NCBI RefSeq assembly: GCF_038025025.1
Contig: NW_027117347.1
Span: forward strand, 372,001 to 436,000
Source: Phyllosticta citribraziliensis
Taxonomy: Eukaryota
Length of the DNA: 64,000 nt
Direction of reading: 5' to 3'
The position numbers and the translations under genes were made by a program. Positions 17,541 to 43,000 of the stretch are shown here, in pieces; position 1 is the first letter of the stretch, and each line of letters begins with the position of its first letter. The notes under the pieces were generated by a model. It saw nothing but the letters and a program-made list of their open reading frames with translations. It had not been told where the DNA came from and searched no databases.

Positions 17541-18140
<600 letters not shown>

Positions 18141-18686: not shown

Positions 18687-19111
<425 letters not shown>

Positions 19112-20115
19112 ACGCCTTCCTCTGTCCTTCTTGTTTATTTCACGAATCTTCTACGGCGGCCTGCAAGCGCACAAGGGGCACGGCATGACGCCTTTGCGCT
19201 GCCGGATGGTTTGGGTCGGGTTCATGGGCTTACTTGTATCATAACGGCATCTGGAGTTTCACGGGGGTCAACCAAGTCGCTTGAGAGAATCAAGGAATGA
19301 TACCACATAATCGAATTCTCGCAACCTGTTCCTTCTTGAGCTCTGCATGCTGTGACCCCGTCGTCCGCCAATTATTTACATCGCTTGTGCTTTTCTAAGG
19401 CTTGCTCCTTGGGTGCTTTCCTCGACGTCCGACGGGTTAGCATTGTGGCTCTGCACTGCATGTCCCTTCGACTTGCTCTTGACATATTCATGTCTGCCTC
19501 GTATCCCACGCTAGCTCGCCGTATACTGTTCGCTATCTCAGATCTGACTTTAGGTTAAGGCAAGAGGGAGTAGAACTAAAGTTAGATCTATTATAAAGCA
19601 ATATAGTATATATATATATATAATTTTAGAGCTATATAATAAATATCTAAAATCTATATCTAGTTATCTACTTTACTATCTATTTCTTTATAGAGATTAG
19701 AATTATTTAGAACTATAATTATTTAGATATAAATTAACATCTTACTTTCTAGATATATAAAGATAATAAGTATTAGTTATATGATACCTAGTAGAGAAAA
19801 TTAATATAGACTACTAATAATTAGTAGGTAAGAAGTAGGAGTAGTTATTATATATATTTATTTTATTTAATATCCCTCTTAGGTTAAAAACTATAAGAGA
19901 TAAGGATAGCTATTCTAATAGTATCTAAATAGCTACTATATAAATAAGTACTAATATCTATAGATATTTAGAGGTCCTATACTATCTATATTATTATACT
20001 TATAGCTAAATAACTATCTATACTAATAATTATATAACTATACTAGCTACTATAGCTATATATACTAGCTACCTAACTAAGTAAGGTACTCCTAACTTAG
20101 CTAAGACTTAGGGAA

Positions 20116-23100
20116 TGTTATAATAGGTATTTATACGCCTATATAAGTACTAAGGCTAGTATAGATAAACCTAGTATTATATAGTTATAAGCTACTAGCT
20201 ACTATAGCCTTAGGCTAATACTAGCTATATCTTAGGCTAATACTAGCTACTATAGCCTTAGATAGATATAGTATAACTACTTATTAATATCTTATCTTTA
20301 TAAATAACCTAATAATAACTACTAACCCTTATATAAAGGTCTAAAGATAAAAAGGTATAAAGAGAAGGTTAGGAAATAGATAGGAAGTAAGTATCTTTTA
20401 TATTTTATTCTTTTTACTTATTATATTTAATTAAGATATATATATATTCTCTAATAGTTTACCTTTAGCCCTAATCTATAAAATAAGAATCTTATAAGTT
20501 ATAATAGATATAAAAGATTATTCTATATATTAGCTCTATCTTATTTTATTACCTATAAAGGTATTATAATATTTAACCTAAATAATATTATATATAGTTA
20601 TAGTCTTATATAAGACTACTTATTACTTTTCCCTAGTAAACCTAAGTTATTCTTATTAGATATATTAGTATTATCTAATAGCTAAGGAGTATTAAGTATA
20701 TATTAACTATAGAAGTCTTTATTTAAGGCTATAGAGTAGTATATAAATATCTAAGAGGTATCCTATCTATACCTACTTAAAGAATATTCTAAGTAGAAGA
20801 CTATTAAAGATAGTATAGCTAAGAATAAAGCTAATATATCTAATATTATTAAAGGTACTAGTACTAGTTAATCTATCTAATAAGATTTATATAAGGGAAT
20901 TAAAGACTTATATAACCTTAGATAATCTTTAAATAAAAATAAATAAGGACCTCCTCCTATTTCCCTATATAAGTTCTATATAATAGAATTAGTAGAGGTA
21001 AAAGAGTAAACTTAAAATCTAGAACCTACTTATATAATAAAGGCTCTAATTATAAAAGTATTTATAAAGGTACTATATTAAGAAATTAAATAATTTAATA
21101 TTAAAATAGTACCCTTAAATAAGCTTTAAGTATAGTAGTAATTAAATTATATATAAAGGTAAAATTAGACTCTTAAGTAAACCCTCTTAAACTATACTAA
21201 TACCTATAAAGAATCTCTAAAGGATATAGTAATAGACCCTTAGAAGTTAAAAATTAAGGCCTAAGATCTATTATTATATCTTAAGATCCTTCTACTAGGA
21301 GAGTATAAAAGACTCTTAGACTACTAATTATCTATATAAGAGAAAGTATAGCTAGGACCTTTACTTCTACTTCTAATAAGAAATATTAAAATAGAAAGGT
21401 TTCTAATCCTCCTCTTCTTACTAATAGAGAAGACCCCTTATATAAATACTAGACTCTCCTTATTTAAAATAAAATTAAATAAAACTATAACTATTTTACT
21501 AAAAGTATACTAGAAGAAACTAATAAAAATATTATAGGATATATTATTTCCTATATTAATAGAGAGGTCTTATAATACTTAACTCCTTTCCTTACTTCCT
21601 ATATAAAGGCTAATAAAGTTACTTTAGATAAGGATATCTTTAAATTCCTAGATAACCTCCTTTAGAGTCTATATAAGTATAAGGATACTAAGAAATAGCT
21701 ATATATACTTATATATTATATTCTAGTAGACCTTTAGAAGTTTTAATCTAACTTTATATAATTAGCTTTAAATATAGACCTTCTTTAAGAGTAATAGAAA
21801 GAGGACTTTTATACTATAATAGATCTACTCCTTTAAACTTATATAGTTACTATAGAATAAGATAAGGATATTAACTTCTATAAGTACCTCTAATAAGCCT
21901 ATTTAATTATTTAAAGTCTTAATAATTACTAATCTAGCTATAGAAAGATAATACTTAGTTTATATAAGGAATAAATAAAGAAGAGATAGTAAGAAAGAGT
22001 AAGAACTACTATCTTAGATAGTATAAGTAGCTTATCTTTAAGTTATACTTAGGCTTAGTCTATCTCTAGAGCTTCCTTATATAATATAATATATAAAGGT
22101 AAGGCTAAGGTCTATATAGAGATTAAACTATATAATTAGTTTAGCTAGTTTAGCTATTTATAGAGATAATACCTATAATCTAAATCTAAGATAATAGAGT
22201 TAATAGAAGAAGAATAAGTAGATAATCTTTATATAGAGAAGAACTAGTCTTTATCCTTAGAAAATAATAAGACCTAGGTAAAGTCTCCTACCTTAGGTCT
22301 AAACTTAGAGTAATATATATTAAGGGTTCTTATATAAATCTTAATTATCTTATTATAGGTAAGCCCTTTACTATATAAACCTTAATTATATCTAATAGCT
22401 ATATCTTAGAAATTTATATCTTAATAGATACTAGTACTAGTAGTATAAGTTTTATTTACCCTAAGTTACTACTAACTCTTTAGTCTATAGATATAGTAAA
22501 AAAAAAAGAATAATAAATAAAGGGCTTAATATTACTAGGTTTAACTAATATATAAATAAGTAAGTTAATTTTTACTTTTATCTTTAACTCTATTTCTAAG
22601 ATTAAATAGTTTTTATATATACTTTTATTTATAATATTAGCTAGAATAATATAATTCTTAGGTAATAGTTTTTTAACTAGTATAATATACTTTCTAACTA
22701 TAAATAATATAAACTAGTCTAGAGATAGCTACTAGTTAATTAATCTTTTTAATATCTTTTATAACTACTAAAGGTTTCTATATAAAGTAATATACTATAG
22801 AAAGAATACTAGGTAGATATAGATTAAAGAAATAAAAACTTTAATTAATACCTTCTTCTCTTAGTATAGGTTATTAAGGGAATTAAATTTTAAATTTAAG
22901 ATACTTTTTAACTTTCTATATTATATTAATAGAGATTTATACTATAAACCTTATATAAATTTAATAAGCTATTAAAGATAAAGAAATAGAGGAATTACTA
23001 GCTTCTAAACTATCTTTAGCCTATAAGGATTTTTAGGATATTTTCTCTAAAATAGAGTCTAATAAGCTACTACTATATTATATAGAAGTTAATTATAAAA

Positions 23101-23633: not shown

Positions 23634-24845
23634 TATTACGCGTTATAGGCGCGGCGTATATAGTTTATAATTTATAGTATTTAGTACTTAGTATTTACTG
23701 CTTATATATATACTGACTATTTATAGCTAGCCTAGGAGTAGATAGTTATTCTATATAGGCTATATAATAACTACTCTTACCCCCTACCTATTAATCATTA
23801 GTAGTTTATATTAATTTACTCTATAAGGTACTATAATACTATTAATAGATCTCTTACTACTTATAAGAGGATAAGACTTATTATCTATCTCTTACTAATA
23901 AGTTTTCTTACTTTAATTATACTCTATATAGTATTAGGATAAAATACTATAGTTTAGATATACTAGAAGCTCTAGATATTATTATTTTATAGTCTATAGC
24001 CTTAGGTAAGGCTAGTAAGTAAGATTCTAGACTAAGATAGTCCTATTAGTAATAGAGATATAATATCTTATTATATTATATAGTTAATAACCTATATAAT
24101 AGCTAAGAGTAGCTAGTCTACTAATAGTATAGTACTATTAGCTACTCCTTAATCTATACTATTAGCTAGCTAGTAGTTATCTACTACTAGCCTATTATTA
24201 GGCTAATCTATTACCCCCTAGGGTAATAATAATAATAAATTACCTACTAGTACTATAGTACTAATAATCTAATAGCTCTAGGAGTAGGTCCTAGGGCTTA
24301 TATAGGTAATTTATAATAGGGGTAATATACTAGGCTATAAGGTCTAGTACTAATTTACTAATCCTAAGTACTAGTCTAGTATTAGCTTATCTAAGGACTA
24401 TTATATATAGTATAGTAGTATTAAGGATAAGCTATTATTTAATAGTAGCTAGTATTAGGATAATATAGTAAAGGCTATATATATTTACTCTTACCTAGCT
24501 AGTAAGGCTACTTTAGCTAATATTACTATTAATAATAATAATAATAATAAAGAAGATAATAGTAATAACCCTAAGACTATCTAGACCTTATTAGATAGCC
24601 TATATAGTATTATAGATTAGTAAAGCTATACTATTACTTAGCTTACTATTATAGACTTAGTTTTAGATATTAGGGTAGCTTTTAAGATATTACTATATAT
24701 ATTTTATATATTAGCTTACTAAGCTAGGTAGGATAGCTATATAACTAAGGACTAGCTAATCTATAAGCTCTATAAGCTATTTTATAATATTACTATTACT
24801 AATATTATAGCTAGCTATAGTAAGTTATTATAGGTCTTAAACTAG
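23634..24845 (+). mobile_element. Ty3/Gypsy family A, 5' fragment (LTR 23634-23838 plus start of gag)
   Basis: LTR and following internal sequence are homologous to 27409 onwards; interrupted at 24846 by an LTR of family B. Confidence 0.85.
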
Positions 24846-25441
24846 GGTAGGCAGGACTAGCTACTTACTAATATACTTACTTAGCTGGCTAAAATGCCAG
24901 CACTAGAAGAGGTATAAGAGATAGTAACTAGTAGTAAATAAGTAGGCTCTATAGGATAGGAATAAAATAGCTACTAAACTAACTAAAATAAGCTACTATC
25001 TAGCTATTATTTTATTATCTAAGCAGTATAAGACTCAGGTATAAATAATAAGTATAAATAAATAAATAACTAAGAATTTAGTAGATAATAGTTTAACTAA
25101 GTATAAAAGACTTCCTTTATATAAGTAGTACCTCTCTATAAGTAGCTATAAAAGGGGGTATATAACTAGCTAATCTACTACTAAAAATACTAATAATATA
25201 AGACCTCCTATTATTACTAAAGATACTAAGTTTACTTATACTTTTATTAGCTATTATTATTACTACTAAACTATATAGAACTATATTTTCCTAGTATTCT
25301 AGAGCTACCTATAGTCTTATTTTCTTACTAGCCTAATCTTCTACTTATATCTAAGCTAAAATTATAGCTAAGAATAAGAATAATAATTACTAAAAATAAT
25401 CTTTAAAAGCTATAAAAACTATACTAGCTAGTAGTACTATA
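24846..25441 (-). repeat. Family B LTR (3' LTR relative to pol), 596 bp
   Basis: Homologous to 44113-44610 (same orientation) and 28066-28661 (inverted); family termini TGTAG...CTACA after de-RIP, first base altered in this copy. Confidence 0.9.
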
Positions 25442-27408
25442 TATAGGGGGGTACTCCTTATTTTACTATCCCCTAGTAAGTAAGAAGAAATAAGGATAAA
25501 AGGTAAGAGAGAGAGTATAAGCTATAGTCTATAGGAGGCTAGATTAGAGTAGCTAATTAGTATACTACTTACCCCTATTATATATACTCCTATAAATAGG
25601 GCTAGTAGGTAAGATATTATCCTAGTCCTTATTCTTACTATACTTATTATAGTACTAGATACCTATAGCTTTAATAATATCCTTATTAGTTAATAGAGGC
25701 TTATTAGGAGTAGGCCTAGTAATATTATTATCCTTATAGTAGAAGTAGGACTTCTTACTTAAGGTATACTTCTCTTCTTTAATAAAGACTAGGAATAGCT
25801 TATTATAAGTATTAATTATATCTAGCTTTATATTATAGAAATAACTAGCTAGTACCTTAGGATTACTAGCTATATCTATAACCTTTTTAACTTCTTTTAT
25901 AACTAATAGGGAGTCCTAGTAATAAGAGTAGACTAAGATATTACTAATTAAATTAATACTAACTACCTCTACTAATACTAGAAACTTATAGGGGTAATAG
26001 CTATATATATATAAGAAATTAGTAGGTATAACCCTAAGAGGGACCTAGTCTTATAGTATACTACTAGCTCTACCTAAATACCTATCTTATTAATTTCTAG
26101 ATAATTATAGTCTTAGTTAACTTTATAGTACTATAGGAAGATTATCTTATATATACCCTTTACTAGGCCCTTAGCTCTATATAGTATTATTAAGTAGGAA
26201 ATCCTAGTATTATAGGCTACTACCTTACTATTAGACTAGCCTAGGCCTCTATCCTTAGTAAACTTAGTAAGGTAGTTAAGAATTAGACCCTTCTTAATAT
26301 TAGTAATACCTACTATATTTATAGGGTTATATACCTTCTTAATAATAGTACTATCCCTATAATTCTTAAAATAAGGTATAAAGCCTTCTATTAAAATTAT
26401 ATAGTCTATATTAGTCTTACTATTAAAGGAGATAGTACCCTAAATTATATTAATACCCCTATTAGTATTAGTATAGTTATTTAAGTTAATATTAAAGTAG
26501 TAGAACTTAGTATAGTTACCCTTCTTTTAGTCCTTTATATATTATAGTATTATATAGAGCTAGTAAGTATAATTAGGCCTAAGTAAAATATATAGGAGCT
26601 AGTATACTAGGTATTAGTAAATAAGCTACTATACTAGTAAGTAGAATATTATATAATTCTAGCCTAGGTTTTAATAAGTATTAATCTCCTACTAGTACTA
26701 GAGGTAGTAGCTAAACTCCTTATTAATTCTAGAGTATATACTATCTAAGAAGCTAAAGAGAGAGCTATTAGTAACTAAATTATTAGTAGCCTTAAACTTA
26801 CTAAGTAGGGTAGTAGTAAGGTCTAAATACTAGCTATAACCTATACTAAATAGAGTAGTAAGACTCTTATTAAGGGTAGGGATTATATTCTAAACTATAG
26901 CTATAATAGCCTTAAACTAGGTATTATAGTTATAGCTAAATATATATAGACTAATAGTATTAGTAGGGTAAACTAGGTAGAAAGATAGTATAAACTAATA
27001 GTATCTATCCTTATAGGATAGGATATTAGATAATCTCTTATAGTTATACTAAATATATTCTAAGTAGAGGTAAATAATATTATCTATTCCCTACTTAGTC
27101 TAAAGACCTAAGTATTTACTAATCCTATAGATATAAGAGTTATAGTAGTTACTTAGGTTATACTAGTATCTAGCCTTACTAAGCTTATAAAGCTTCTTTT
27201 ACTAGGACTCCTTAGATATAGGGATAGCTTTAGTAGGAAATTTCTTATAAAATCTAGTAGATAAGATCTAGCTATTAATTCTAGTATAGGTATAGTACTT
27301 AGCTATATAAATCTTTTTAGTACTATTAGTTAGAGATATAATAATAACTTCTAGGTCTAAATCTACTTCTTTATTACTATAGACCTCTTCCTTATTATCC
27401 TTATTTAT

Positions 27409-30400
27409 TATTACGCGACACGGCGCGCGCAGTTTATATTTTATAGTGTCTAGTACTTAGTATTTACTACTTATATATATACTAGCCATTTCTAGTTAGC
27501 TAGGGAGTAGATAGTCATTCTATATAGGCTATATAATAACTACTCTTACTCCTTACCTATTAATTATTAGTAGTCTATATTAATTTACTCTACTAGGTAC
27601 TATAATACTATTAATAGGTCCTCTCTTACTACTTATAAGAGGATGAGACTTATTATCTATCCCTTACTAATAAGTTTTCTTACTTTAATCACACCCTATA
27701 AGGTATTAGGTTAAAATACTATAGTTTTAGATATACTAGAAGTACTAGGTATTATTATTTTTATAGTCTATAGCCTTAGGTAAGGCTAGTAAGTAAGATT
27801 CTAGACTAAGATAGTCCTATTAGTAATAGAGATATAATATTTTATTATATTATATAGTTAATAACCTATATAATAGCTAAGAGTAGCTAATCTACTAATA
27901 GTATAATACTATTAGCTACTCCTTAAACTATACTATTAGCTAGCTAGTAGTTAGCTACTACTAGCCTATTATCTAGCTAACCTATTACCCCTTAGGATAA
28001 TAATAATAATAAACTACCTACTATTACTTTACTAATAACTTAGTAGCTCTAGGAGTAGGTCCTAGTATAGTACTACTAGCCGGCACGGTTTTTATAGCTT
28101 TTAAGGGTTACTTTCAGCGATTATTATTCTTATTCTTAGCTGCAGTTTTGGCTCAGATATAAGTAGAAGATTAGGCTAGTAAGAAAACAAGACTATAGGC
28201 AGCTCTAGAATACTAGGAAGATATAGTTCTATATAGTTTAGTAGTAATAATAATAGCTAATAAAAGTATAAGTAAACTTAGTATCTTAAGTAGTAATAGG
28301 AGGTTTTATATTATTAGTATTTTTAGTAGTAGATTAGCTAGTTATATACCCCCTTTTATAGCTGCTTATTAAGAGGTACCACTTATATAAATAAAGTCTT
28401 TTATACTTAGTTAAACTATTATCTACTAAATTCTTAGTTATTTATTTATTTATACTTATTATTTATACCTGAGTCTTATACTGCTTAGATAATAAAATAA
28501 TAGCTAGATAGTAGCTTATTTTAGTTAGTTTAGTAGTTATTTTATTCCTATCCTATAGAGCCTACTTATTTACTACTAGTTACTATCTCTTATACCTCTT
28601 CTAGCGCTGGCATTTTAGCTGGCTAAGTAAGTATATTAGTAAGTAGCTGGTCCCGCCTACACTAGGGCTTATATAGGTAATTTATAATAGGGGTAATATA
28701 CTAGGCTATAAGGCCTAATACTAATTTACTAATCCTAAGTACTAGTCTAGTAATAGTATACTAGATAACTACTATATATAGTATAGTAGTATTAAGGGTA
28801 AGCTACTCTTTAATAGTAGCTAGTATTAGGATAATATAGCTAAGGCTATATATATTTACTCTTACCTAGCTAGTAAGGCTACTTTAGCTACTATTATTAA
28901 TAATAATAATAATAATAGTAAAGATAGTACTAATAATCCTAATATTATCTAGACCTTATTAGATAGCTTATATAGTATTATAGACTAGTAAAGCTATACT
29001 ATTACTTAGCTTACTATTATAGACTATATTACTAGTACTAGGGTAGCTTTTAAGATATTATTATATATATTCTATATATTAGCTTATTATACTAGCTAGG
29101 ATAGCTATATAGCTAAGGATTAGCTAATCTATAAGCTATATAAACTATTCTATAATATTACTATTACTAATATTATAAAAGGCTATATAGAGCTATTATA
29201 TATCTTAGGCTAGGCTACTAATATTAGCTAGGCTAAGCTATTACTAATCTTATAGATAATAAACTACTATAAGGGTACCCTCTATATAGCTATACTAGCT
29301 AGACTCTCTTATTAGGCTACTCCTACTACTAAAGGTACTACTAGTAGTATTAAATAGGAGTATACTACTATACTAGAAGATTATAGCTATTAGTATTATA
29401 GTAGTTAGGAGTACTAGATTAAGGACTATCTATATAGTAAGCCTATATATTATTAGCTAATTTATACCTATATAGCTACTAGTATAGAGGAGGTTACTAA
29501 AGAGTTTATAGATATAGTTAAGGACCTAGGTATTATTATTATTAGTAAGGGTAATATTATAGACTTAGATAAGTTATTAGGAAATAAGTAGCCTCCTATA
29601 AAACTACTATAGGAGGTAATACCTATAAGATAGCTATTAGTTATTTAATATAATTAGGGAATAGAGTTTCTAGTCCTTCTTACTACTCTTATACTATATA
29701 TATCTATATATATCCTAATATACTATTATAGCCTATCTATATCCTTATTAACTCTAGCTATACTAGTAGCCTATATATAAGCTAGTCCCTTAAGTATAAA
29801 CTTATTACTACTAGTACTTAGAAGTAATAGTTATATAAGCCCTAGATAATTAATAACTATATATATAGCTAGACCTAATATCTTACCTATAAGCTTATTA
29901 CTAGGTTATTATTTAGCTTAGAATATAGGGATAATTCTATACTTTTTAATCTATAGGCTTCTATAATAATTACCTAGATTAGTTCTTTATATAATTTATT
30001 TATTAGCTTAGAGTATATATACTAGTTTAGTTTTATACTAGATCTAGGATATATATTATTAAAGATTAGTAGAGTAAAGTTAGGTAGGTTATTTTAGTAT
30101 AGTACTAATTTATAAAATAATTTTTTAGCTAAATCTTAGGATATTTTAATATAGCCTTAAGTAGCCTCTAAGCTAATTAAATCCTTACTACCTACTTAAA
30201 TATTATCTTAGGTATTATAAACTAGTATAGCCTATCTATATATATCTACTACTAATATACTACTACCTATAACTATAACTATAACTCTCCCCTAGACTAG
30301 TAGCTAGTTATCTAATAACTATATCTTACTACTATTACTATCTATAAATAATACTACCTTATCCCTACTATAGCCTACTACTATAACTCCTATTAAGATC

Positions 30401-33400
30401 TTATATTATAGCTAATCTCTTAATAATAACCTACTAATCTCTCCCCTATAAGTTAGTATTAAGTAAGTTAGCTAGCTATACTAGTTAATATATTATAAGC
30501 TAGGCCTAATAAGGGAGCTATCTTAGTTATAATATTACTACTAAGTACCTAAGGATATTTCTATTATTAAAGAGACTATAAGTTAGCTTAATAAATAGAG
30601 CTATTCCTAGGTAAGCTTATTAGCTAATATAGTACTAATTATAGCTTTTAATATAGTCCTACTCTAATAATAGCTTAGTATTAAGGCCTACTCTATCTAT
30701 ACCTTTACTCCTATTAATAACTTAGAGTATACTAAACTTTATATATTAGAGCCTATCTTATAAGCTTTTAGTATTAGTAAAAATAAACCTTACCTCTATT
30801 ATACTATCCCTTATAAGTATTATAATCTTTTAGATATATTCTATAATACTAACCCTCTCCCTTATACCTATCTATAGACTAACTTCTATATAGAACTAAA
30901 GGATAGTACTAAACCTAAAGACCTTAGCTATATACTACTCTAATATACTAATAATATCTAGTTAGCTAAGATTAAGTAGTATATCTAGGAGGGTATTAAT
31001 CTTAGTATATTAGAGCCTAGTAAGGTAGGTATAGCCTTACCTATTTTACTTATAACTAAATCTAATAGTAGAGTTTATTTCTATATTAATTACTATAAGC
31101 TTAATAAACTTATAAAAAAGGACTACTATCCCCTCCTATTATTAGATAAGATAATTAGCTAGATAAGAGGTACTAAGTATATTACTAAGCTTAATATTAA
31201 GTAGGCTTTCTACTAAATATATATTATAAATAAGTAGACTAAGGACCTACTTATATTCTAGACCTACTATAGTACCTATAAGTACTTAATTATACCCTTT
31301 AGTATAGCTAATAGCCCTAGTACCTAGTAATATTTAATTAATAAGTACCTATTCTACTACCTTAGTAAGTATACTACTATATATCTTAATAATATCCTTA
31401 TTTATAGCTAAATACTTATAGATTATTAATAGTATATTAGATAGGTCCTTACTTAGTTATAGGAGTATAGTTTATAAGTTAATATTAATAAGTATAAGTT
31501 CTATATCTAGGAAACCTAGTTTTTAGGTATTATTATCTCTACTAATAGTATTTATATAGACCCCTTTAAGATTAATATAATTATATCTTAAGAGTAGCCT
31601 ATAATAGTAAAATAGGTCTAGTCCTTTCTTAGTACTACTAATTTCTACTAGTAATTTATTAAGAACTATAGTAAGACTACTAGGCTATTAATATAGCTAA
31701 TATATAAGGGTATTAATTAGTAATAGACTAATATTAAATAATAGTTATTTAATAGTCTTAAGTATACCCTTATAATAGTACTAGTCCTTACCTACTTTAA
31801 TCTAGCTTATAAGATAGTTATAGAAATAGACTTATTTAATTAGACTAATAGTAGCCTTCTCTCCTAGTATAATAATAAATAATAGCTTTACCCTATTATA
31901 TACTACTCTAAAACTATAGTACTAGCTAAGTTTAACTATACTATCTATAATAAGGAGCTCCTAGCTATTATTTATACCTTAGAATTATAGGAGCCTAATC
32001 TTAAGGCCTATTAGATACTATTTATAGTATTTATAAATTACTAGATATTATAATATTTTACTATTACTAAATAGCTAATATATTATTAAGCCTACTAGGT
32101 AGAACTCCTCTTAGAATATAACTTTAAGATTATATATTACCCTAGCTATACTAATATTAAGGCTAATACTCTTACTTACTATCCTTAGGATACCCCTACT
32201 ACTAATAACCCCTAGTAATAAATATAATACTAAACCCTACTCCTAGCTAATAAGCTCTTAACTAGTATATATAAGAACTAGGAGCTAGCTCTAGTAGATA
32301 ATAATAATAATAATATATTTATACTCTATTAGTTACTTATAGCTAATACTATAGATAATACTAAGATAAATAATTAGAGGTATTATACTAGTAAGCTAGA
32401 CTTACTATTTACTATTAATTAGTAGTAGAATATCTTTATAGATAGCTACCTTATTATACCTACTAAACTCTAGCTACTCTTTAAATATTATATCTATAAG
32501 TAGCTACTAATTAGCTACCTAGGCTAAACTTAGCTATATAACCTCCTAGTACTATAATTTTAATTTCCTTATCTTATCTTACTTATATTCTAAGTTATAG
32601 ATAACTATCTAAACTATATCTATATTTATAAAGCTTACCTAGCTATTTTAGGCTACCTTTAGCTACTACCTATTCTATTATAGCTATAGTAGTATATTAC
32701 TATAGACTTTATTAGCCTACTATTATATAGTAAGGGTATAGATACTATCCTAGTTATTTATAACTATTTTAGTAAAGTATATTACTTTATTACTATAGAT
32801 ACTATTAATAATAGGACTATAGCTAAAGCTATAGCTTATATACTTATAGACTATATCTTTACTATATATAGTTTCCCTCTCTCTATTATTTTAGACTATA
32901 GTAACTAGTTTATCTCTTACCTATAGGAGGGCCTAGCTTATATTATTAGTATTAGCCTAAAGCTATCTACTAGCTATTATCCTTAGACTAATAACTAGAT
33001 TAAATAAGCTAATTAAGATCTTAAGAACTACTTAAGATAGTTTATTAGGTTCTATTAGGATAATTAGTAACTACTACTATCTATTACCTAGTTTATAGCT
33101 AATAATATACTATATAAGAGCCTTAATAGCTACTCTCCTTTTTATATTTATTATAGCTATAAGCTATAATTTAATTTTAATACTAAAGCTACTATTTATA
33201 GTATCTATAAACTAATTATAGATACCTATTCTATATAACTATAGACTATATAAGCTATTACTTATACTATATAATAAGTCTAGGATAAGACTAAGTATAG
33301 TCTTATAGTTATATAATAATAAATAGCTATCTAAGCTAACTACTAGTATTAGGGTTATATTATTAAACTAGGTAAATATATATATACTCTATAGCTATCC

Positions 33401-34047
33401 TACTATACTTAATTTTTATAATAATAGTCTATATTAAGTTACTAATATATATAGTAACTAGGCTATACTATAACTACCTACTAGTTTATATACCTATAAT
33501 AAATTTAATATCTTATATCTTATTATTATAGGTAATAACCTATTACCTAAGTAATAACTAGCTACTAGCCTAGCCTTATAAGATAATAATAATAAGAATA
33601 AGGATACTAATTAGGAGGTAGAGGAGATTATAGGCTATTAGATATTAGCTAATAGGAGGCTCTAGTTTAGGGTAAATTAGACTAACTATCTATTAGACTA
33701 GGTATTCTATAATACTAATAATAGTAAGTTTAATAATATATATAATATTATCTTATACTATTATAAAAGGTACCTAGACCTTTACCTACCTATAGGTTAG
33801 ACCTATAACTAAGTAATAAGGATATTACTTACTAGGAGAGGGGGGTAGTATTATATAATATAGTAAATATAGTTTATATTTTATAGTATTTAGTACTTAG
33901 TATTTACTACTTATATATATACTAGCTATTTCTAGTTAACTAGGGAGTAGATAGTTATTCTATATAGGCTATATAATAACTACTCTTACTCCTTACCTAT
34001 TAATTATTAGTAGTCTATATTGATTTGCTCTACTAGGCACTATAATA
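27409..34047 (+). mobile_element. Full-length Ty3/Gypsy chromovirus, family A (LTRs 27409-27607 and 33849-34047)
   Basis: 5-bp TSD TTTAT on both sides; polypurine tract GGAGAGGGGGG before the 3' LTR; de-RIPed Zn knuckle (~29385-29430), RT RFC.DYRKLN....KD.YPLP (~31075) and YLDDILIYS (~31380), RNase H, integrase, chromodomain EVEEI.G....GRLQFRV.W (~33615-33680). Confidence 0.92.
28066..28661 (+). mobile_element. Solo LTR of family B inserted into the gag region of the family A element
   Basis: Inverted copy of 24846-25441, ends ...GCCTACA; 4-bp TSD CTAG (28062-28065 and 28662-28665); the empty site GGTCCTAGGGC is present in the other A copy at ~24287-24297. Confidence 0.9.
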
Positions 34048-37000
34048 TTTATTAGGAGAATAGTATTATTATTATTATTACTTCTATAGGCTAAACTTTT
34101 AATAGTTAGTATAATTTACTAGTATATATTAGGGGTAATAGGAGGGATATTAAAATAGTAGTATTTACTAGGCTCTTTCTTCTAAGGAGGGGACCTCTAT
34201 TACTTTAAAGTACTCTAGATATTATTACTAGGTAAGTTATAGCTTAGAGTTATATTTATAATATTATTAGATAATCTTACTAAGTTAAGGATATCTATTA
34301 AATTATTACTAGAACTAGTAAAACTAGTAGCTAATTTATCTATAAGAAGTACTAGGTTAATATTACTATTAGCCTAGGTAGTAGATAACTTACTACTAGC
34401 CTAGGGGAGAGTTATTATACTAGTAGCCTTACTAAATATTACTCCTATTTTATAAGTAGAGTAATAAAAGGCTTTATCTATATCCTTATTAGGACCTATA
34501 GTTATAGCCCTAATAAAATCTCCCTTATCTAAGTACTCTCTAAATAAGGTAGTAAACTAGCTAGTATCTATTTCTATAGGGGTATCTATTAGAGAATTAT
34601 AGTAAGTAGCCTATTCTAGTAATACCTCTATAAGCTCTAGAGTAATAATAGCTATATAATATATATATCCTTACTATAGAGACCCTTATTATATTAAGAG
34701 GTCTAGGTATAGGTAGGGTATTCTATACTTATTATAGACTATCTAGGTACCTATAACTTTAGGGTTATAGGATAGCTTTATAATAGTAATATACTAATTA
34801 ATATAGGAGATTAGCTTACCTAATATAGTCTAGGAAGCTAACTTTAGTAGTAGAGCCCTATAGCCTCTATCCTTAACTATAAGCTCTAGTAGTATAATCT
34901 TAGCTAGCTCTTTTTTAAGAAAATCTATATAAATAATACCCTTCTAAGTACCTATAATCTTTATAAAGCTACTAATATATTTTTATAGGCCTACCTTAGT
35001 ATTATATAAGCTAGTTTTACTATTCTTATCTAGATTAAGCTTAGTAAAGTTAAAGTTACTATTAATTATATTCTATATATCCTAGTAGTACTTATCTTTA
35101 TACTACTAGTCCTCCTTTAGTAAATTATAGTCTTTCTTAAAGATCTAGAAGTCTTAGGCTATATTATAGCTATAGTTCTTAAGATTATAGAATAAGGTTC
35201 CCTAGTTAATAGTATTATTAATAATTATACCTAGCCTAACTAGGCCCTCCTACTATAATTTATAGAAGTTATATAGCTAGTAAATAAAATTATAGTACTT
35301 ATCTAGGTATTCTTTATAGGATAAGTAAGTACTAATATAGTCTAGTATAGTTTCCTAGTCTCTCTAAGTAATAGTACTAGGAATATACTAGTAATAAATA
35401 AGCTCCTTTATAGCCCTATAGGGATTAGCCTTATAGGTATATTAGATAATATTACTATTAGCTAAGATAATAGTATTATTAGTATCTTTAGTAGTAGTAA
35501 TATCTATAGTAGGGTTAATAGGTATATCCTCTATTATAATAGTAAGGGGGAATTATTATAGGGGTAGTAGTCATAATAGTTAAATAGTAATTCTTTAGTA
35601 AGAGTACTACCTATACTAGGCCTAATTAGGAAAATTCTAAGATATCTTACTATAAGTAAGAGAAATAACTACTTAGAAGTAAATTACTTAGTAAGGAGTA
35701 GTACTAAACTAATATAAGGGCTAGCTTATAGTTATATATTATATCCTTATTAGCTTAGTATACTAAATAATAATACTAAAACTCTATTCCTACTTATAGT
35801 CTTAATAAAGGAATATTTTTAGCTTAGAACCTAATAGTTTAGTTATTAGGGTCCTAAAGATTTTTAGGGATATATAAGCTTATATATAGTATAGGGTTAT
35901 TTTATAGCTCCTAATTAGCCTAATAACTATCCCCTAGTCCTAGGGGGGAGTTATTAGTAGTATACTAAACTATAATAGGTAAATATTACTATTAGCCTCT
36001 TAGTACTAAACTTACTATACCCTTATTAATTTAAACTTTTCTTAATACTACTACCTCTCTTAAATATATAAACTTTACCTTAAAATACTAAAACTCTAAA
36101 AATCTAGATATCCTACTTATTTAATTTATCTAGGTTTTTACCCTTATTATCCTAGCTATTATTAAAGGCCTTATACTAATCTAATACTTACTTAGAATAT
36201 TATAGGATTTATATACCCTTTAGGGTCTTAGGGTATATAATTCTAGTTTTAGGCTAGGGTCTATTTAATAGGTATAATAGATATAATAGTTAGTCCTACT
36301 AGCTCCTACTAGTTCTTAGTAATAGATTAACCTACTAATAGACTATCTTAACTAGGTCTTTATCCCTACTAGTAAACTTTTTAAGCCTATCTCCTATAAT
36401 TAGATTTACTACTTTCTCTCTATTAAGTTCTTTAAGCTAGTAAGTATAAGTTTCCCTATTAGCCTTATAGATTTTAAATAATCCTTTCTAAAAGAAGTAA
36501 AGCTTTATTTTATACTTATTCTTAAGCTTAGTATAGTAGAATAGTACCTAATCTTCCTTATTAAATCCCTTATCTATTACTTCTCTAACTTATAGATAGT
36601 AGCTATTAAACTATTCTTTATTCTATTCCTATAGGTAATATACTTATAATATAACCTCCTAGAGCTTCTTATTATATAGGTTAATTTACTTTACTTATAA
36701 GGCTAATAGGTCTCCTATACTCTTTATATCTTACTATAATATAAGCTACTATATAGGTATCTCTATCTTAATAGGGAGTATATAGTCCCTCCTATATAAG
36801 ACCTCTATAGGAGTTATTTTAGTTATTCTATAAATTATAATCCTATTAACCTATAGGATACTATAAAAGTATAGTCTCTAGGGCTTAATATCTCTAATAG
36901 ATAGCTTAGCTAGTATATTATTAATTTACCTATACCCTCTTTTAACTATACTATTTAACTCTAGGTAGTATACTAAAATATTAACCTTAGATATATAGTA

Positions 37001-40000
37001 TAGCTCTATAATAAGTTTAGTATAGCTTAGGTTCTTACTACCTCTATCTATAATAAGATATTAAAATATACTATAGTAATAAATTAGCTCTTTATATAAG
37101 AAGTTAGCTACTAGGGTAGCTTTTAATAAGTATAGGATTTATCCTTTAACCTAGCTAGAAACTACTTCTTATATATTAATATAGAAACCTCTAGGTATAT
37201 AGATAATATCTATATACTATTTATTATCTAGGATTAATATTTTAAGGGATAGGTAGAGGGCCTCCTTATTATATAATAAATTATAAAATAAATAGGTCTA
37301 ATAATCTTAGTATTCTTATTTATACTTAGTCTATAGTTCTTTCTAAAAGTACTAATCTAAGACTTTCCTAAATATTCCCTCTTTAGTATAATAGCTAAAC
37401 TTATAGTATAGTTATTATACTATTTATTTTTAAATAGTAGGATTATCTACTACTTATTTTAGTAGTATATTCTTTAATAATTACTAAAATTAGTACTAGT
37501 TATAGATCTAGTACCTATAGGCCTTCTACTACTATTTCTAGACCTCTAATTATTTAACTTTAGATAAGAGTAGGCTATAGGTAATAAATTTAGCTAGGTC
37601 CTCTAATTCTTAGGAGTACTCCTTATATAGTACTCTATATAGAATAACCTCTCCTAATAGACTAGAAGGGCCTAATACTAGTATTTAATTAGCTAGTATT
37701 AACTCTCTTCTAGTCTAGGGGATAGTTAATAGAAGGTCTATAGAGCTAACTATATATATACTTAGCTATAGGGATAATAATAACTTATTAATTTTATCTT
37801 CTATCTTCTCTACTTATTTCTATAGGTCTTCCTTACTTAACTTCTTAAAGTTTAGCCTTTTTAATAGTATATCTACTACTCTATTCTTTATCCTAGTAAT
37901 ATATAGTATCTTAAAATTCTATATAGATAGCTAGCTAAGCTACTACTTAAGAACCCTACTTATTATAGATTTAGTCCTACTATTTAGGTAATCTTATAGG
38001 ATATAATAATCTATTTTAATAAGGAAGTACTATCTAAATAGCTATAGTTTAAATCTAGTAATTATATATACTAGTACTTAGTATTCTAGCTTTTTAAAGT
38101 TATAAAAGGATTCTATCTTAGATTAAATACTACTCTTATATTATACTAGATACCTAGTACTATTCTTCTCTTATATTAAAACTACTCCTTATCCTATACT
38201 ACTACTATCTATAGCTATAATAATATTACTAGTAGACTCCTCTCTATATATAATAGATACTAAGGTAGGTACTATTATAATAGCTTCCTTAATTTTAGCT
38301 ATAGCCTTATTATACTTATTTTTCTAAGTAAATAGTATATTCTTCCTTATTAGAGTATATAGTAGTACTACCTTATATAAGTACTCCTTAATCTAGTAGT
38401 AAAAATAGGTAGTTACTCCTAAGAAGCCCCTTAATAATTTAAAATCTTAGAAAGTATCCTAATTATTAATCTTATCTACTTTAGACTTAGTAGGTAGGTA
38501 TCTAAACTCTTTATATCTAAATCTAATAATTTCTACTTCTAATATACTAAAGAAGGATTTCTCTCTTAAGATTATAAGTCTAGCTAGTTCTAGGTTCTAT
38601 AGTATATTATTAATATCCTAGATATACTTAAATATAAATTACCTAACCCCTATAACTATACTTTCTATATTATTATATTAGCTCCTTTATTAGCCTCCTA
38701 TAATATTATTTATAAAAAGGTTAGCCTTATCTTATTAATTATTTAATATATATCTTAGGCTATAAACTACTTATCCTAGAGAATTAGTCCTACCTTAGAA
38801 AAGTATATAGTTATAATAGTATCTCTAGGGAGTAATAAATCTAGTAAGGTCCTAGTACTTTTTAGTAACTATAAACTAATTAAAACTAGAGTATAGGTCT
38901 ATAAGGGTATATATTACTAGGCCTCTCTAGTACTCTATATAGTTATCTATTAGTCCTAGTATACTAGTATCTTAAATAGTAATATTATTTAGTATTTATA
39001 GATTATTAATCTACCTATATATACTATTCTTCTTAGGTAAGACTATCTAGGGGTTATAATATTAACTAGAGTAGTACTTAATAATCCCTATATCTTACTA
39101 AGTAGTAAGTAAGTTATATATATATTATATTTTAGCTTATAAAATATATAATACTCTAACTCTCTAGGCCTTATATAGTATTATCCTAATAGGGAATTTA
39201 TATATTACTATTAGTTTAACTTATCCTATTTCTAAAAGGTTAAATAAGATAGTACCCTCTCTACTATATAATATTTCTAGTATTAGTTCCCTCTCTCTTA
39301 ACTAGAGGTTATCTCTAGTAATAAGGCTAGCTAGCCTATCCTATATAAGGTATATACCTAGCTAAAAGATAGAAATCCTTAGATAGAATAAGTAATTAAA
39401 TTATCCCTAGCTCTAAAGATCCCTTACTAGTATAGTAGTCTACTTAGTAATTATAGTTTCTTTAGTTTTCTACCCCTTAATTATATTTAATAACTCCTCC
39501 TATAGTATTAAGTTATCTATAGGCTCTATTTTTATACCTTTTTATTTATATACTATATACTAGTATAGGTTTTATTATCTAGTAGTATTAAGATAATTAG
39601 GAAATATCCTATACTAAGATACCCTATAATAAATAATACTCTATTCTCCTATTATATATATAGTTAAAAATATATTATCTAATACTAAATTAATATTTTT
39701 AGTATTTTATTTATTTTAATTATATAGGCCTCCTCCTAGTTAGTATAGTAATTATATACTAATTAGCCCCTAAATTATTATACTAGCTAGTTTCCTAGCC
39801 CTACTATTTATATACTATTACTACTTTAGATTCTAAGTAGACTAATATAGTATATAGTATCTTTAATACCTTTAATAAATAGGAATACCTAGTAGGTAAT
39901 AATTTCTATATAGTAGTAAGGATTAATAGGGTAGGTAAACCTTAGCTTAACTACTCTAATAGGTATAGTTTTAAATTTACTACCTACTAAGATAATCTAG

Positions 40001-43000
40001 GGTATTCCTAATATAATAGGGATAGTAGTTTAGTTATATACTAGGAAATAAGTACTCTAGGACTAATCTCCTATTTAAATAGCTAAACTTAGGATCTATT
40101 ATTTAATTTTATACTTTAAACTATTTATAAACCCTATAGTTATATTAAATCTATTAGGTAGTATATCCTATACTAGGATACTAAGTTTAGCTATAAGGGC
40201 CTTAGAAATACTATTTATATTTACTCTAGTATCTACTAGTACTTATACTATATAGCTACTAAAGGATACTAGAATAAAGGGTAATAGGATATAATAAATA
40301 ATAAGGCCCTATTATTTAGCTAATATTATAACCTCTTTATAGGTTATTAGCTTTAGCTTATAGTCTCCTTTAATAGTTATAGAATCCTCCTAACCCTTAG
40401 GTAATTTAATACTAAAGTATATTTTATATATTAATAGGTCTATAGGCTTACTATTCTAAAGAGGCTTATTATTAGGCCTATATAAAATAAAGCTCTATAT
40501 AGGTATATACTTTATAGTATATACTAAGCTAGTATATATATAGTTAAAAACTCTAGAGATAGTTTTACCCTTAGTAACTAATATATTAGTTAGTATATTT
40601 AAATATATAAAGATCCTATCTAGGAAATAATCTTCTTATTTAAATAGGTAATACTAGGAGAAGTTAAATTCTATAGATTTACTAGAAGAGTTAAATTAGT
40701 ACCCTTTAATATTATTAACTAGCTCTATATATATAGTATATAATAGCTTCTATAGGTCCTCTATTATATATAGGTATTTATTTAGTATCTATAGGTTATT
40801 ATAAAGTATTTCTTAGACCTCTTCTATAATCTTAGTACTAATAGGAGTATAAAATAACTTCTATATATTATTATATAGGCTAAGGATTCCTTTTATATAC
40901 CTAATAGTCTCCTTATTAAAGATATCTCTATATCTCTAGCTATTTAGACCTAGTTTATACTATTTATAATAGAATAGGTCTCTAAATATAATAGTTTTAA
41001 CCTAGTACTACTTAGGGGGGGCCCTTTTACTAAGTAGCTCTAGCTTATTATTCTCTAATCCCTTAAATATAATACTTAGCTTATTTTATAGGATTTCTTT
41101 AATATTAGATATATCCTTATTAGTATCCTCTATAGTTACTTTCTATAGTTTATCTATATTAAGCTCCTAAGTAGGCTCTTTACTAGAGATAGTAGATTCT
41201 TTAATATTACTACCTAGTAGACTAGTAATAGCTAGTTATCTTAGTAATTAAGGTATATTTACTAGTAGAATTATACCTAGGATATCCTTATTACATATAT
41301 TCCTAGTCTTATTAGTTATTACCTACTTAGCTATATTCCTAACTTATTTATTAATTACTATTTTATTAACTAGAGCTTATAGGATTTTAGCTCCTCTCCT
41401 CCTAGCTAGCTTCTTTAGCTTCCTTATATATTTTATAATCTTTATTAGATTTATAAAGATTATATTTCTAGAGGGTACTTTAGCCTTAAAATAGTATATA
41501 CTATATATTATCCCTTTATTATAATAGTAAATCTAATAGAAATAAGGCTAGCTATCCTCTATATTAGCCTAAGTATAACTAATCTAAGTATTCTAGCCCT
41601 AGTCCTAGTTATATTAGTCTTAGTTATATTAGCTATAGTCTAATAGTATATTATATCTAGTATTAATTTATAGTAGGGGCTAATATCCTTATAGTTCTTT
41701 ATTTATTATAGATTAAGATAATAACTCTCTCCTAGTCTAGTAGGGAGTTATTTATTATTCTAGTACTAGTAGTATTTTTAGTAAATTATTATTATTTATC
41801 TACCCCTAATATTATAAGTACTTCTTAATATCTAGCTATTTATTCTACTTATAAGTTAATATTAGCTAGCTATTAAAGTCTTAGATATATCTATTTTAAC
41901 TAATAGATATAAGACTAGTATATATAAATAGTAATAGAATAGGATAACTCCTAATTATATAGCCTATCTTATTATAACTCTAGTATTCTCCTATTCCTAG
42001 ACTTTAGTTTATATTTAAACTAGTAGGTCTAGCCCTATTATAGGAGTTAGGGTTATACTATAATTAGCCTATAGGAGTTATCCTAGGTAGTAGTAGCCTT
42101 ATTAATAGAAGGCTAGGACCTACCTATAAAGTATATTATCCTAGTAGTAGTATATACTACCTAGCTAGTTAGCCTATTTAGATAGAGCTATTATAGAGAA
42201 ATAATAACTAGATAACCCTTATATATAGGTCCTTATTACTTATAATATACCTATACTTCTTATTATCTACTAGCTATTTATAGATATAGCTAGTAGCCTC
42301 CTAGATTAATTTAATATATATCTTAGCTAGCTTATCTATTAGGTCTTTAACTATAGTATTATTACTCTTTACTAAAGGGGTCTTAGTCTTAGAGGTTAAC
42401 TATCTATTTAAAGCTATAATTATAGAGGAAGAGCTATTTAAGGATAATACTATAAGTAGTAGAAGAGATCTTAGGAGGTATCCTCTTCCTACTAATATAG
42501 GGTCTATAATATAGTCTAACCCCTTAATATAGTATATAACTATATTTATAACCTCTAGTAAGTCTATAGTATATAAGGCTATATACTATTTATATTCTAG
42601 CTAGGCCTTAATATATAACTAGAGATACTAAATATTCCTAGCCCTATAGAATAAGTACCCCTTATATAAGACCCTAGTTTATATATCTATATATAGGGTA
42701 TTAAGGAACTATATCTTTTATAGGCTTTTATTAATATATCCTTCTTCTACTACCTTATTACTAAGTATCCTATATAGCCTAAAGAACTTATCTACTTTAG
42801 AAGGGTAATAGAGGTCCTTATATCTCTTAGCTAAGTTCTTAATATAGCTCTAGTTCCTACTAATTATACTAATATCTTAGTTCTTATAGTATATTAGTAT
42901 CTAGACTTTTAGGCCTTTCTAATCTCTAGTCTTAAACTTAATAGTATAGTAGATTTCTAGGCTAATTAGGGTTTTATAATACTAAACTAGCTTTAGTATA

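Follow-up and report, generated by a model that had tools for sequence, protein, structure and literature searches.

Env-like and other third open reading frames (ORFs) of Ty3/Gypsy retrotransposons lie between pol and the 3′ long terminal repeat (LTR), on the same strand as pol, each as an ORF of its own that follows a short spacer. In Phalaenopsis orchids, Ty3/Gypsy elements carry an ORF for an AlkB-type demethylase of N6-methyladenosine (m6A) in RNA, a member of the 2-oxoglutarate-dependent dioxygenases (2-ODD) whose activity has been demonstrated (PMC9289625). In fungi, TET/JBP genes are carried by 11 lineages of DNA transposons (PMC12730594). The subject of this work is a fungal counterpart, element B, found in a stretch of 64,000 nucleotides from Phyllosticta citribraziliensis (assembly GCF_038025025.1, contig NW_027117347.1, positions 372,001 to 436,000 of the forward strand). 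This whole stretch is referred to below as the window, and positions are counted from its first letter. Element B occupies 24846-44610 on the minus strand, ∼13.1 kb when the nested element A is left out of account, and is a Ty3/Gypsy LTR retrotransposon inactivated by repeat-induced point mutation (RIP). Between its pol and its 3′ LTR lies the relic of a gene for a protein resembling Fe(II)/2-oxoglutarate (2OG) dioxygenases, as had been proposed in a preliminary description made from the letters of the window. This cargo gene is an integral part of the retrotransposon and is referred to in intact relatives as ORF3.

The observations can be joined in a single reading, in which B is a RIPed Ty3/Gypsy element of an ORF3-bearing lineage and the live protein would work as an Fe(II)/2OG oxygenase and increase the element's fitness. 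The probability of this joint reading is put at roughly 0.85, a figure that does not include the removal of silencing marks as a mechanism. The reading is carried by the established anatomy of B, the homology and fold of its cargo, the recurrence of this architecture in intact elements from other sources, and purifying selection; together, these sequence patterns suggest an active oxygenase of benefit to the element. The parts of the locus, from left to right, are the following.

24846-25441, minus strand: 3′ LTR of element B, 596 bp, with TG..CA-type ends allowing for RIP; a direct repeat of 44113-44610 and an inverted copy of 28066-28661.
25442-25600, minus strand: 3′ untranslated stretch from the cargo ORF to the 3′ LTR; its boundary with the end of the ORF is approximate.
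25600-26065, minus strand: C-terminal tail of the cargo protein, after a frameshift (codon starts mod 3 = 1).
26060-27408, minus strand: C-terminal half of the cargo, with a Cys/His module and a predicted PhyH-like Fe(II)/2OG oxygenase domain (codon starts mod 3 = 0).
27409-34047, plus strand: element A, a separate RIPed Ty3/Gypsy element inside the cargo ORF of B, with LTRs at 27409-27607 and 33849-34047 and a polypurine tract before its 3′ LTR.
28066-28661, plus strand: solo B LTR within element A, inverted relative to the other two B LTRs and flanked by an exact 4-bp target-site duplication (TSD), CTAG.
34053-35651, minus strand: putative N-terminal half of the cargo, start codon unlocated (codon starts mod 3 = 2).
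35652-36346, minus strand: end of pol and spacer leading to the cargo ORF; in intact relatives, this spacer measures ∼340-450 nt.
36347-37453, minus strand: integrase (INT) region of B pol, recognized by tblastn with residues 791-1157 of the pol of relative L010 (E = 2e-19).
37859-39406, minus strand: reverse transcriptase (RT) and RNase H (RH) region of B pol, recognized by tblastn with the gag-pol of relative L054 (E = 1e-33).
39407-44112, minus strand: presumed gag-protease region and 5′ leader of B, of a length that fits the 3.2- to 3.8-kb gag-protease (gag-PR) region of intact relatives.
44113-44610, minus strand: 5′ LTR of element B, in the same orientation as the 3′ LTR; at 498 bp, it lacks ∼98 bp compared with the other copies.

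The LTRs were delimited by comparing the window with itself in blastn searches, which were repeated in a purine/pyrimidine-collapsed alphabet that renders RIP transitions invisible. In the collapsed alphabet, the three B LTR copies of the window are 98 to 100% identical, their differences being almost only transitions. Pfam recognized an RT_RNaseH domain in B at ∼38317-37969 of the minus strand (E = 9e-8), and the pol domains follow each other on that strand in the order RT-RH and then INT. The LTR pair, the RNase H match, and this domain order identify B as a Ty3/Gypsy element of the minus strand. The protease (PR) was not detected in B, and no domain was directly detected in its gag-protease region (39407-44112); the full order, PR-RT-RH-INT, is seen in the intact relatives L010, L054, and L055 (loci in metagenome contigs, described below), the last of which also contains a chromodomain. 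By tblastn, B pol is most similar to the pols of these same three elements. Beside the 44113 LTR, on the pol strand, B retains the leader motif TTTATAGTAT, a transition variant of the motif TTTATGGCAT that is found 3′ of the 5′ LTR in the intact relative L018 and in L050. The motif TAGGGGA, located ∼30 nt before the 3′ LTR of B, occupies the same position in L018 and L050. These two shared motifs, the leader motif and the one preceding the LTR, establish the orientation of B and its tie to L018 and L050. A collapsed-alphabet blastn search with the B LTR found no LTR remnant between the B integrase and the cargo ORF.

Before the insertion of element A, one ORF of ∼1,130 codons ran from ∼35651 to ∼25600. 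The internal evidence for this is strong, because excision of A restores the frame and because stop codons are depleted in a single frame. When A is removed together with one copy of its TSD (27409-34052; 6,644 bp, remainder 2 mod 3), the codon at 34055-34053 abuts the one at 27408-27406, in frame. The C-terminal half (26060-27408, 449 codons) has 28 in-frame stops versus 97 and 47 in the other two minus-strand frames; the respective numbers are 5 versus 18 and 36 for 25600-26065 and 42 versus 59 and 101 for 34053-35651. Altogether, the relic of the cargo contains 75 in-frame stops and one frameshift near 26040-26065. The membership of the N-terminal half in this ORF is deduced from frame continuity, stop density, and length; with that half included, HxD, the first part of the predicted catalytic triad, falls at approximately residue 837, compared to 823 in L054 and 848 in L069. 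The cargo ORF ends ∼160 to 260 nt before the B LTR, on the pol strand, as it does in the relatives. In the window, the gene is a dead relic without present function, split by A, interrupted by stops and a frameshift, and mutated in its catalytic codons. The preliminary description had placed the B LTRs at 24846-25441 and 44113-44610, had called the element a minus-strand gag-pol retrotransposon, and had seen after pol an ORF relic of ∼3.1 kb split by A. The LTR positions are confirmed, the assignment to Ty3/Gypsy holds, and the ORF relic only needs a slight extension, to ∼25600-25700, past the frameshift near 26040-26065 that the description did not contain.

The translation of 27408-25930, with its stops read as Q, Q, and W, was compared with 1.84 billion representative proteins. 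This search returned at least 150 relatives at E ≤ 1e-3, including 7 at E ≤ 1e-10, with the best E value being 4.5e-13; among the matches listed, all fall on query residues 82-455. The C-terminal 590 codons of the relic belong to an uncharacterized family of Pezizomycotina proteins of 700 to 1,240 amino acids (aa), which are annotated as “hypothetical protein” and have no Pfam model of their own. The relatives found in this search are 700 to 1,100 aa long, and their named sources are Penicillium, the lichen fungi Candelina, Vezdaea, and Ptychographa, one member of the Chaetothyriales, and Coccidioides immitis. The entry from C. immitis RS (P0027, CIMG_13391) is a RIP-like fragment of the oxygenase family, 175 aa long, and is probably a transposon relic annotated as a gene. 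More generally, the proteins of this family that are annotated in fungal genomes probably represent genes of transposons or RIPed pieces of them that were annotated as genes. In a six-frame scan of the window with a hidden Markov model (HMM) of the family, only 27234-26359 (independent E value [i-E], 6e-26) and 26050-25700 (i-E, 6e-10) were recognized, and in phmmer searches the tail of the cargo matched residues 732-847 of the relative P0127 (E = 8e-11) and residues 790-893 of L010 ORF3 (E = 1.7e-7).

Reading back through RIP carries a risk of its own: in DNA with 75% A+T, the freedom to reverse C>T and G>A changes might by itself produce a plausible protein, given that an AT-rich codon has up to eight possible ancestors. 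This was assessed on those columns of the alignment, 48 in number, in which 32 intact relatives show at least 90% conservation. The relic matches the family residue exactly in 22 of them and is RIP-compatible (that is, reachable by C>T or G>A changes only) in 40, whereas shuffled relic codons gave 2.3±1.4 identical and 8.7±2.6 compatible columns, with a maximum of 18 in 2,000 shuffles. With an 85% threshold and 69 relatives, 60 columns were obtained, of which 27 are identical in the relic, 24 are compatible, and 9 are incompatible. Furthermore, the uncorrected translation, with stops simply read through, already finds the family (E = 4.5e-13; i-E = 6e-26). Chance agreement of the de-RIPed protein with the family is excluded by these figures, and the probability that the protein is an artefact of reversing RIP is negligible. 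Of the translations of the window scanned with Pfam profiles, B yielded RNase H alone, with nothing on the cargo halves and no PhyH, because RIP erases profile matches. On the family tree, the relic has a branch length of 7.3 and no reliable position.

Alignment to the family also locates the codons of the conserved residues (residue numbers are those of L010 ORF3).

27133-27144, minus strand: CxxH relic of the Cys/His motif, TAT..TAT, with the invariant C407 at 27144-27142 and the near-invariant H410 at 27135-27133; G>A or C>T changes suffice to reach both codons.
26491-26499, minus strand: HxD relic, TAC-TTC-AAT, read Y-F-N and aligned to an invariant His and a 99% conserved Asp.
26499-26497, minus strand: codon of the HxD His, TAC in the relic, invariant His in the family, RIP-compatible.
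26493-26491, minus strand: codon of the HxD Asp, AAT in the relic, Asp in the family, RIP-compatible.
26181-26179, minus strand: codon of the distal iron-binding His, TAT in the relic, invariant H703, RIP-compatible.
26151-26149, minus strand: codon of a conserved Arg ten residues past the distal His, TAT in the relic, compatible with CGT, invariant R713.

All of the 69 family sequences compared have H602, H703, and R713, and at least 90% of them have D604; the HxD, His, and RRTxLPW motifs are all kept in intact transposon-borne copies. The family pattern suggests that R713 would serve as the ligand of the 2OG C5-carboxylate. Among 50 members compared to Pfam, PhyH (PF05721) is the sole recurrent family, found in 14 of the 50 at E ≤ 0.01 with a best E value of 5e-8, mostly below the curated cutoff; when members were scanned individually, 7 of 14 matched PhyH and 2 of these exceeded that cutoff (22 bits). 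None of the 50 matched DUF1479 (PF07350). Solved structures gave no sequence match at E ≤ 1, either for the family profile or for the N-terminal 470 aa.

For the 506-aa relative P0113, an AlphaFold2 model built from 93 aligned sequences has a predicted local distance difference test (pLDDT) score of 90.1 and a predicted template modeling (pTM) score of 0.85. With this model as the query, Foldseek found 169 Protein Data Bank (PDB) chains at E ≤ 1e-3, and the top ones are all Fe/2OG oxygenases of the PhyH group: DUF1479/YbiU, GIG2, the proline hydroxylase H11, GriE, EvdO1, SnoN, SnoK, EctD, and AviO1. In the fold comparison, YbiU (4rgk) scored 20.3 (root mean square deviation of 3.2 Å over 278 aligned residues) and GIG2 (6akz) 19.0, followed by PhyH-type small-molecule oxygenases at 13 to 15 (human PhyH, 13.7), with NMAD-1, JMJD3, NgTET1, and ALKBH7 at 8.6, 8.3, 8.2, and 8.1, respectively. 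The predicted model contains the double-stranded beta-helix, and the fold comparison together with the motifs assigns the cargo domain to the PhyH/DUF1479-like Fe(II)/2OG oxygenases, as judged from that model. Most of what had been foreseen from the letters alone is thereby borne out: the reversal of RIP-type changes yields a coherent protein; its catalytic codons lie exactly at 26499-26497, 26493-26491, and 26181-26179; the motif string that had been read from it is present in the family alignment (F-x-H-x-D-x-N, P-H-G, and R-R-T-x-L-P-W); and the uncharacterized fungal family with a PhyH-like fold that had been brought up exists, its predicted structure leading to 2OG-Fe(II) oxygenases in the suggested AlphaFold and Foldseek check. 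In contrast, there is no specific tie of this domain to the AlkB and TET/JBP enzymes that the preliminary description had brought in.

The oxygenase domain is only a part of the protein. In intact relatives of 950 to 1,240 aa, an N-terminal helical domain is followed by a disordered linker, a Cys/His module, the beta-helix domain, and a helical C-terminal part. The Cys/His module, at approximately residues 348-470 of L010 ORF3, has an invariant CxC...CxxH pattern, the beta-helix domain carries the HxD...H triad and the Arg, and the tail is Arg/Ser-rich and basic. Pfam searches at E ≤ 10 with the Cys/His region and the N-terminal domain alone gave nothing meaningful; a SAP-like motif after CxxH, seen in 1 of 50 members (E = 0.006), is only a hint. 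The protein atlas had no usable match for the N-terminal 470 aa of L010 ORF3, and PADLOC returned no matches for three intact cargo proteins.

Intact elements with the same gene were found in metagenomes. A pattern scan of metagenome contigs yielded 343 stretches encoding relatives, and the best 80 of these were analyzed with their flanks. Gypsy pol is located upstream, on the same strand, in 29 of the 41 loci that have at least 5 kb of upstream flank; 25 of these 29 are copies of one family, and L027, L031, L054, and L069 represent other lineages. The preliminary description had suggested looking for intact homologs downstream of Gypsy pol inside LTRs, and an LTR pair encloses pol and ORF3 in every one of the 24 loci whose flanks are long enough (≥9 kb upstream and ≥1.5 kb downstream). 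One metagenome contains at least 19 copies of a ∼10.6-kb repeat unit that ends just past the gene and encodes RVT_1, RNase H, and integrase zinc domains upstream of it on its strand; the LTRs of this unit lie at 1333-1588 and 11698-11953 in L050 and likewise in L053. Intact three-ORF elements are represented by L010 and L018, with ORFs of 1,059 and 1,014, 1,214 and 1,202, and 986 and 988 aa, respectively; their natural intact ORF3 copies include L018:7462-10419 and L010:8746-11595. In L054, an intact gag-pol (2,365 aa) is accompanied by an ORF of 1,240 aa, and L069 has gag, pol, and an ORF of 1,146 aa. The order LTR-gag-pol-ORF3-LTR recurs in at least five element lineages (L010/L018/L050, L027, L031, L055, and L069). 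The element in L018 is a young insertion, as its LTRs are 99.6% identical and it is flanked by the TSD CTAC. Fused pol-oxygenase proteins of >1,700 aa were not found, which is weak evidence. The contigs of L055 and L070 have repeated ends (1-167 = 10054-10220 and 1-207 = 10826-11032, respectively), which makes them circular permutations of one element; such permuted contigs come from tandem copies, LTR circles, or assembly collapse.

Between L010 and L018, synonymous divergence (dS) is 0.33 to 0.60, and the ratio of nonsynonymous to synonymous divergence (dN/dS) is 0.20 for gag-PR, 0.09 for pol, and 0.08 for ORF3. ORF3 is as constrained as pol and has been under purifying selection while traveling with the element; the low dN/dS and the retention of the catalytic motifs show that it is maintained by selection within the element. 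The check by which the preliminary description had offered to refute its proposal speaks for that proposal, as judged from related elements of other organisms, which have the ORF within their LTRs, and from the family, which keeps HxD...H...R.

The elements L010, L054, and L055 have pols that are 41 to 49% identical and cargo domains that are 41 to 50% identical, the matching divergence expected for long codivergence. The L069 pol is only 20 to 24% identical to these three, whereas its cargo domain is 33 to 46% identical to theirs, which places the cargo gene in two or more Gypsy lineages with a deep split between them. The first tree, with at least three clades, had suggested that Gypsy elements captured the gene several times independently; this interpretation was dropped, because a single clade of the 7 Gypsy-borne rows was not rejected (approximately unbiased [AU] test, P = 0.625); this intact-rows tree left out the relic and 4 RIPed rows and kept L039, which has weak evidence of pol and was not counted as Gypsy.

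Several observations weigh against the joint reading. The outer flanks of B are CTAG on the left and CTAT on the right, a 3/4 match and no clean TSD, compared to the exact CTAG of the solo B LTR and the CTAC of L018. The DNA to the right of B is not a continuation of the element A copy that is interrupted at its left. These two features, missing TSD and discordant contexts, mean that B in its present form may have arisen by recombination between two B copies; such an origin leaves the internal order of the element unchanged. The window contains only one cargo copy by the family HMM scan. The N-terminal half (34053-35651) has no homology detectable by plain phmmer or with RIP-aware scoring: RIP-aware profile alignment scored 12.3 versus 13.2±2.2 for shuffles and 174 for the positive control, and RIP-aware pairwise alignment with four transposon-borne N termini remained at the chance level. 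The N termini of the family are poorly conserved, so this lack of homology says little either way. In 12 of the 41 loci, there is no Gypsy pol upstream, and the L030 member, a fragment, lies among ordinary host genes. The members in L033, L038, and L049 lie 0.5 to 4 kb from Helitron RepHel genes. Finally, cargo-bearing elements have been RIPed in two organisms, and the enzymes with the nearest solved folds have small molecules and free amino acids, not nucleic acids, as their substrates; these structural neighbors fit a role through a small molecule or a protein at least equally well.

Some of these points might suggest that the ORF is foreign to B, being a host gene or a once-captured fragment that was trapped between insertions and destroyed by leaking RIP. 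The mismatched contexts and unclean flanks of B, the single B copy with the ORF in the window, and the 12 loci lacking a nearby Gypsy pol would fit such an origin. However, no LTR remnant separates pol from the ORF, which is on the same strand and stops ∼160 to 260 nt short of the B LTR; the pol affinity, the leader motif, and the pre-LTR motif of B are all those of elements in which LTR-gag-pol-ORF3-LTR is the rule (24 of 24 testable loci, at least five lineages). A foreign origin of the ORF is therefore very unlikely, and the cargo is treated here as a gene of the retrotransposon.

The family members located away from Gypsy pol have neighborhoods of their own. The oxygenase genes with their Helitron RepHel neighbors (Helitron_like_N, PIF1, and DUF6570) lie in L038:8882-16965, L033:5553-11283, and L049:1442-11374; the two genes are arranged tail to tail in L033 and L038 and head to head in L049, and L038 and L033 have common DNA that spans both genes. 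The L004 member adjoins an rva_4 integrase-core ORF (L004:6569-7672, E = 2e-10), and the L062 member adjoins a DUF6589 gene (L062:12808-14316, E = 1.5e-60); these two neighbors hint at further mobile-element contexts. Several of the non-Gypsy loci have unannotated neighbors in common. In L006 (3266-7129) and L007 (1376-5212), whose oxygenases belong to different clades, a homologous ORF of ∼1,280 aa without a Pfam match lies upstream on the same strand; it may encode a protein of another, unrecognized mobile element.

As to what the enzyme does, the live ORF3 protein would be translated from its own ORF, and the Cys/His module and the basic tail could form its targeting part. The oxygenase might then remove or alter, by oxidation, a host silencing mark on the nucleic acid or chromatin of the element. 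By analogy with other transposon-borne dioxygenases, this is the most attractive single mechanism, albeit a tentative one, with the odds clearly against it. The broader proposal, that mobile elements across Pezizomycotina have in this family an accessory gene dedicated to them, a counter-defense enzyme that would erase or rewrite a silencing mark, is doubtful.

The preliminary description had favored a more specific version, in which the cargo would be an enzyme of the AlkB or TET/JBP kind that modifies or demethylates nucleic-acid bases and acts against DNA methylation or RIP. This idea draws on the TET/JBP genes in 11 lineages of fungal DNA transposons (PMC12730594) and on the AlkB-type m6A demethylase ORF of orchid Ty3/Gypsy elements (PMC9289625). 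The purifying selection on ORF3 in the element agrees with it, and the conserved Cys/His module could bind nucleic acid. Nevertheless, none of the 50 members matched AlkB or TET/JBP Pfam profiles at E ≤ 0.01, and cargo-bearing elements are RIPed both here and in another organism. Not only is the B copy in the window saturated with RIP changes, but the at least 19 copies of the related element in the other organism are heavily RIPed as well, and the intact L018 shows 2,357 differences from the degenerate L050, 1,771 of them C>T or G>A. Because cargo-bearing elements are so heavily RIPed, effective protection from RIP by the cargo, one of the roles that had been suggested, is unlikely, and a base-modifying enzyme of the AlkB or TET/JBP kind is unlikely as well.

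Alternatively, the cargo could be an Fe(II)/2OG hydroxylase whose substrate is a small molecule, a free amino acid, or a protein, the latter perhaps a restriction factor of the host or the Gag or integrase of the element itself. Such an enzyme would leave silencing marks untouched and would either help the element or simply hitchhike from one mobile element to another. The relative P0055 points in this direction, as its protein-atlas features lead to PhyH clusters and also to Gig2-like clusters (score of 0.90, a weak lead), and the occurrence of the gene beside Helitrons and unrelated neighbors fits a gene that moves between elements. A purely metabolic enzyme would be of no obvious benefit to a retrotransposon, yet ORF3 is constrained like pol, and the Cys/His module, the long disordered linker, and the Arg/Ser-rich tail suggest targeting to a macromolecule. 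On balance, a hydroxylase of this kind is less likely than not.

The copy in the window lies in a block of extreme RIP. The GC content is 55 to 59% at 1 to 18 kb of the window and 22 to 29% at 20 to 64 kb. The edge of this AT-rich isochore, at ∼18000-20100, adjoins apparently normal genes; across it, the GC content drops sharply from 57% to 23% and the RIP indices switch from non-RIP to extreme. In the AT block, TpA/ApT is 1.76 and (CpA+TpG)/(ApC+GpT) is 0.02, compared to 0.51 and 1.24 in the genic part. There are no ORFs of ≥80 aa within 24000-45000 of the window.

Element A has an exact TSD, TTTAT, at 27404-27408 and 34048-34052, and an RT_RNaseH_2 match on the plus strand at ∼31736-32100 (E = 9e-14); it lacks the extra ORF. 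Because A sits in the cargo gene of B with an exact TSD and the solo B LTR sits in A with an exact TSD, the order of events is clear: B was present, A was inserted into its cargo gene, and another B copy, now a solo LTR, was inserted into A. A second, truncated copy of A at 23634-24845, consisting of the 5′ LTR and ∼1 kb of internal sequence, stops exactly at the left B LTR. A 1.69-kb inverted repeat (20115-21797 and 44611-46299) is 97% identical when transitions are ignored; one of its arms abuts the right B LTR, and the other is near the edge of the AT block. The fragment at 46297-46749 resembles two parts of B pol (37516-37759 and 38299-38582) without the ∼560 bp that hold the RNase H match and is probably a deleted relic of another B-like copy.

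In the literature searched, which did not extend to Repbase and subscription journals, there was no report of a PhyH-like oxygenase in fungal LTR retrotransposons. The available portions of the reviews and of a survey of fungal LTR elements mention no such enzyme (PMC3248453, PMC13297926, PMC10799480). The copy in the window is dead, and its interest lies in the family that it revealed. Extra genes fixed in LTR retrotransposons are rare, and each of them is apt to reveal where element and host are in conflict: the orchid AlkB drew attention to the control of transposon RNA through m6A, and the fungal TET/JBP transposons to 5-methylcytosine (5mC). The genome defenses of Pezizomycotina, namely, RIP, DIM-2 methylation, and trimethylation of histone H3 at lysine 9 (H3K9me3), are well studied. 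Against this background, the young intact copies with 99.6% identical LTRs provide a concrete and cheap experimental handle on what Pezizomycotina retrotransposons need to oxidize. Should the counter-defense role prove true, this would be the third independent case of transposon-borne oxidative anti-silencing, beside the fungal TET/JBP and the plant Gypsy AlkB, and the first one in fungal retrotransposons.

Compared to env-like third ORFs, the cargo gene has the same position, the same strand, and a similarly short spacer, but it is predicted to encode a soluble enzyme fold and not an envelope glycoprotein. Similarly to the orchid Gypsy AlkB, it is an extra ORF separate from gag-pol that encodes a predicted Fe(II)/2OG dioxygenase with its cofactor residues kept, and it has likewise been retained through the diversification of the elements (PMC9289625). 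As with the dioxygenase passengers of fungal mobile elements, it occurs with more than one class of elements, here two deeply diverged Gypsy lineages and the adjoining Helitron RepHel genes, and it is presumed to serve the element. The PhyH/DUF1479 enzymes (YbiU, 4rgk and 7twe; Candida GIG2, 6akz) have the solved folds nearest to the predicted one, but there is no match to them at the sequence level at E ≤ 1 and no DUF1479 match. The literature searched for the functions of DUF1479 and GIG2 yielded nothing of use. In contrast to these enzymes, the cargo proteins are transposon-encoded, are two to three times longer, and contain an N-terminal helical domain, a disordered linker, and the invariant Cys/His module. 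Thus, the kind of gene, a transposon-borne 2OG dioxygenase, is already known; what is new is a different enzyme family with an added Cys/His module, which resides in fungal retrotransposons and is apparently undescribed.

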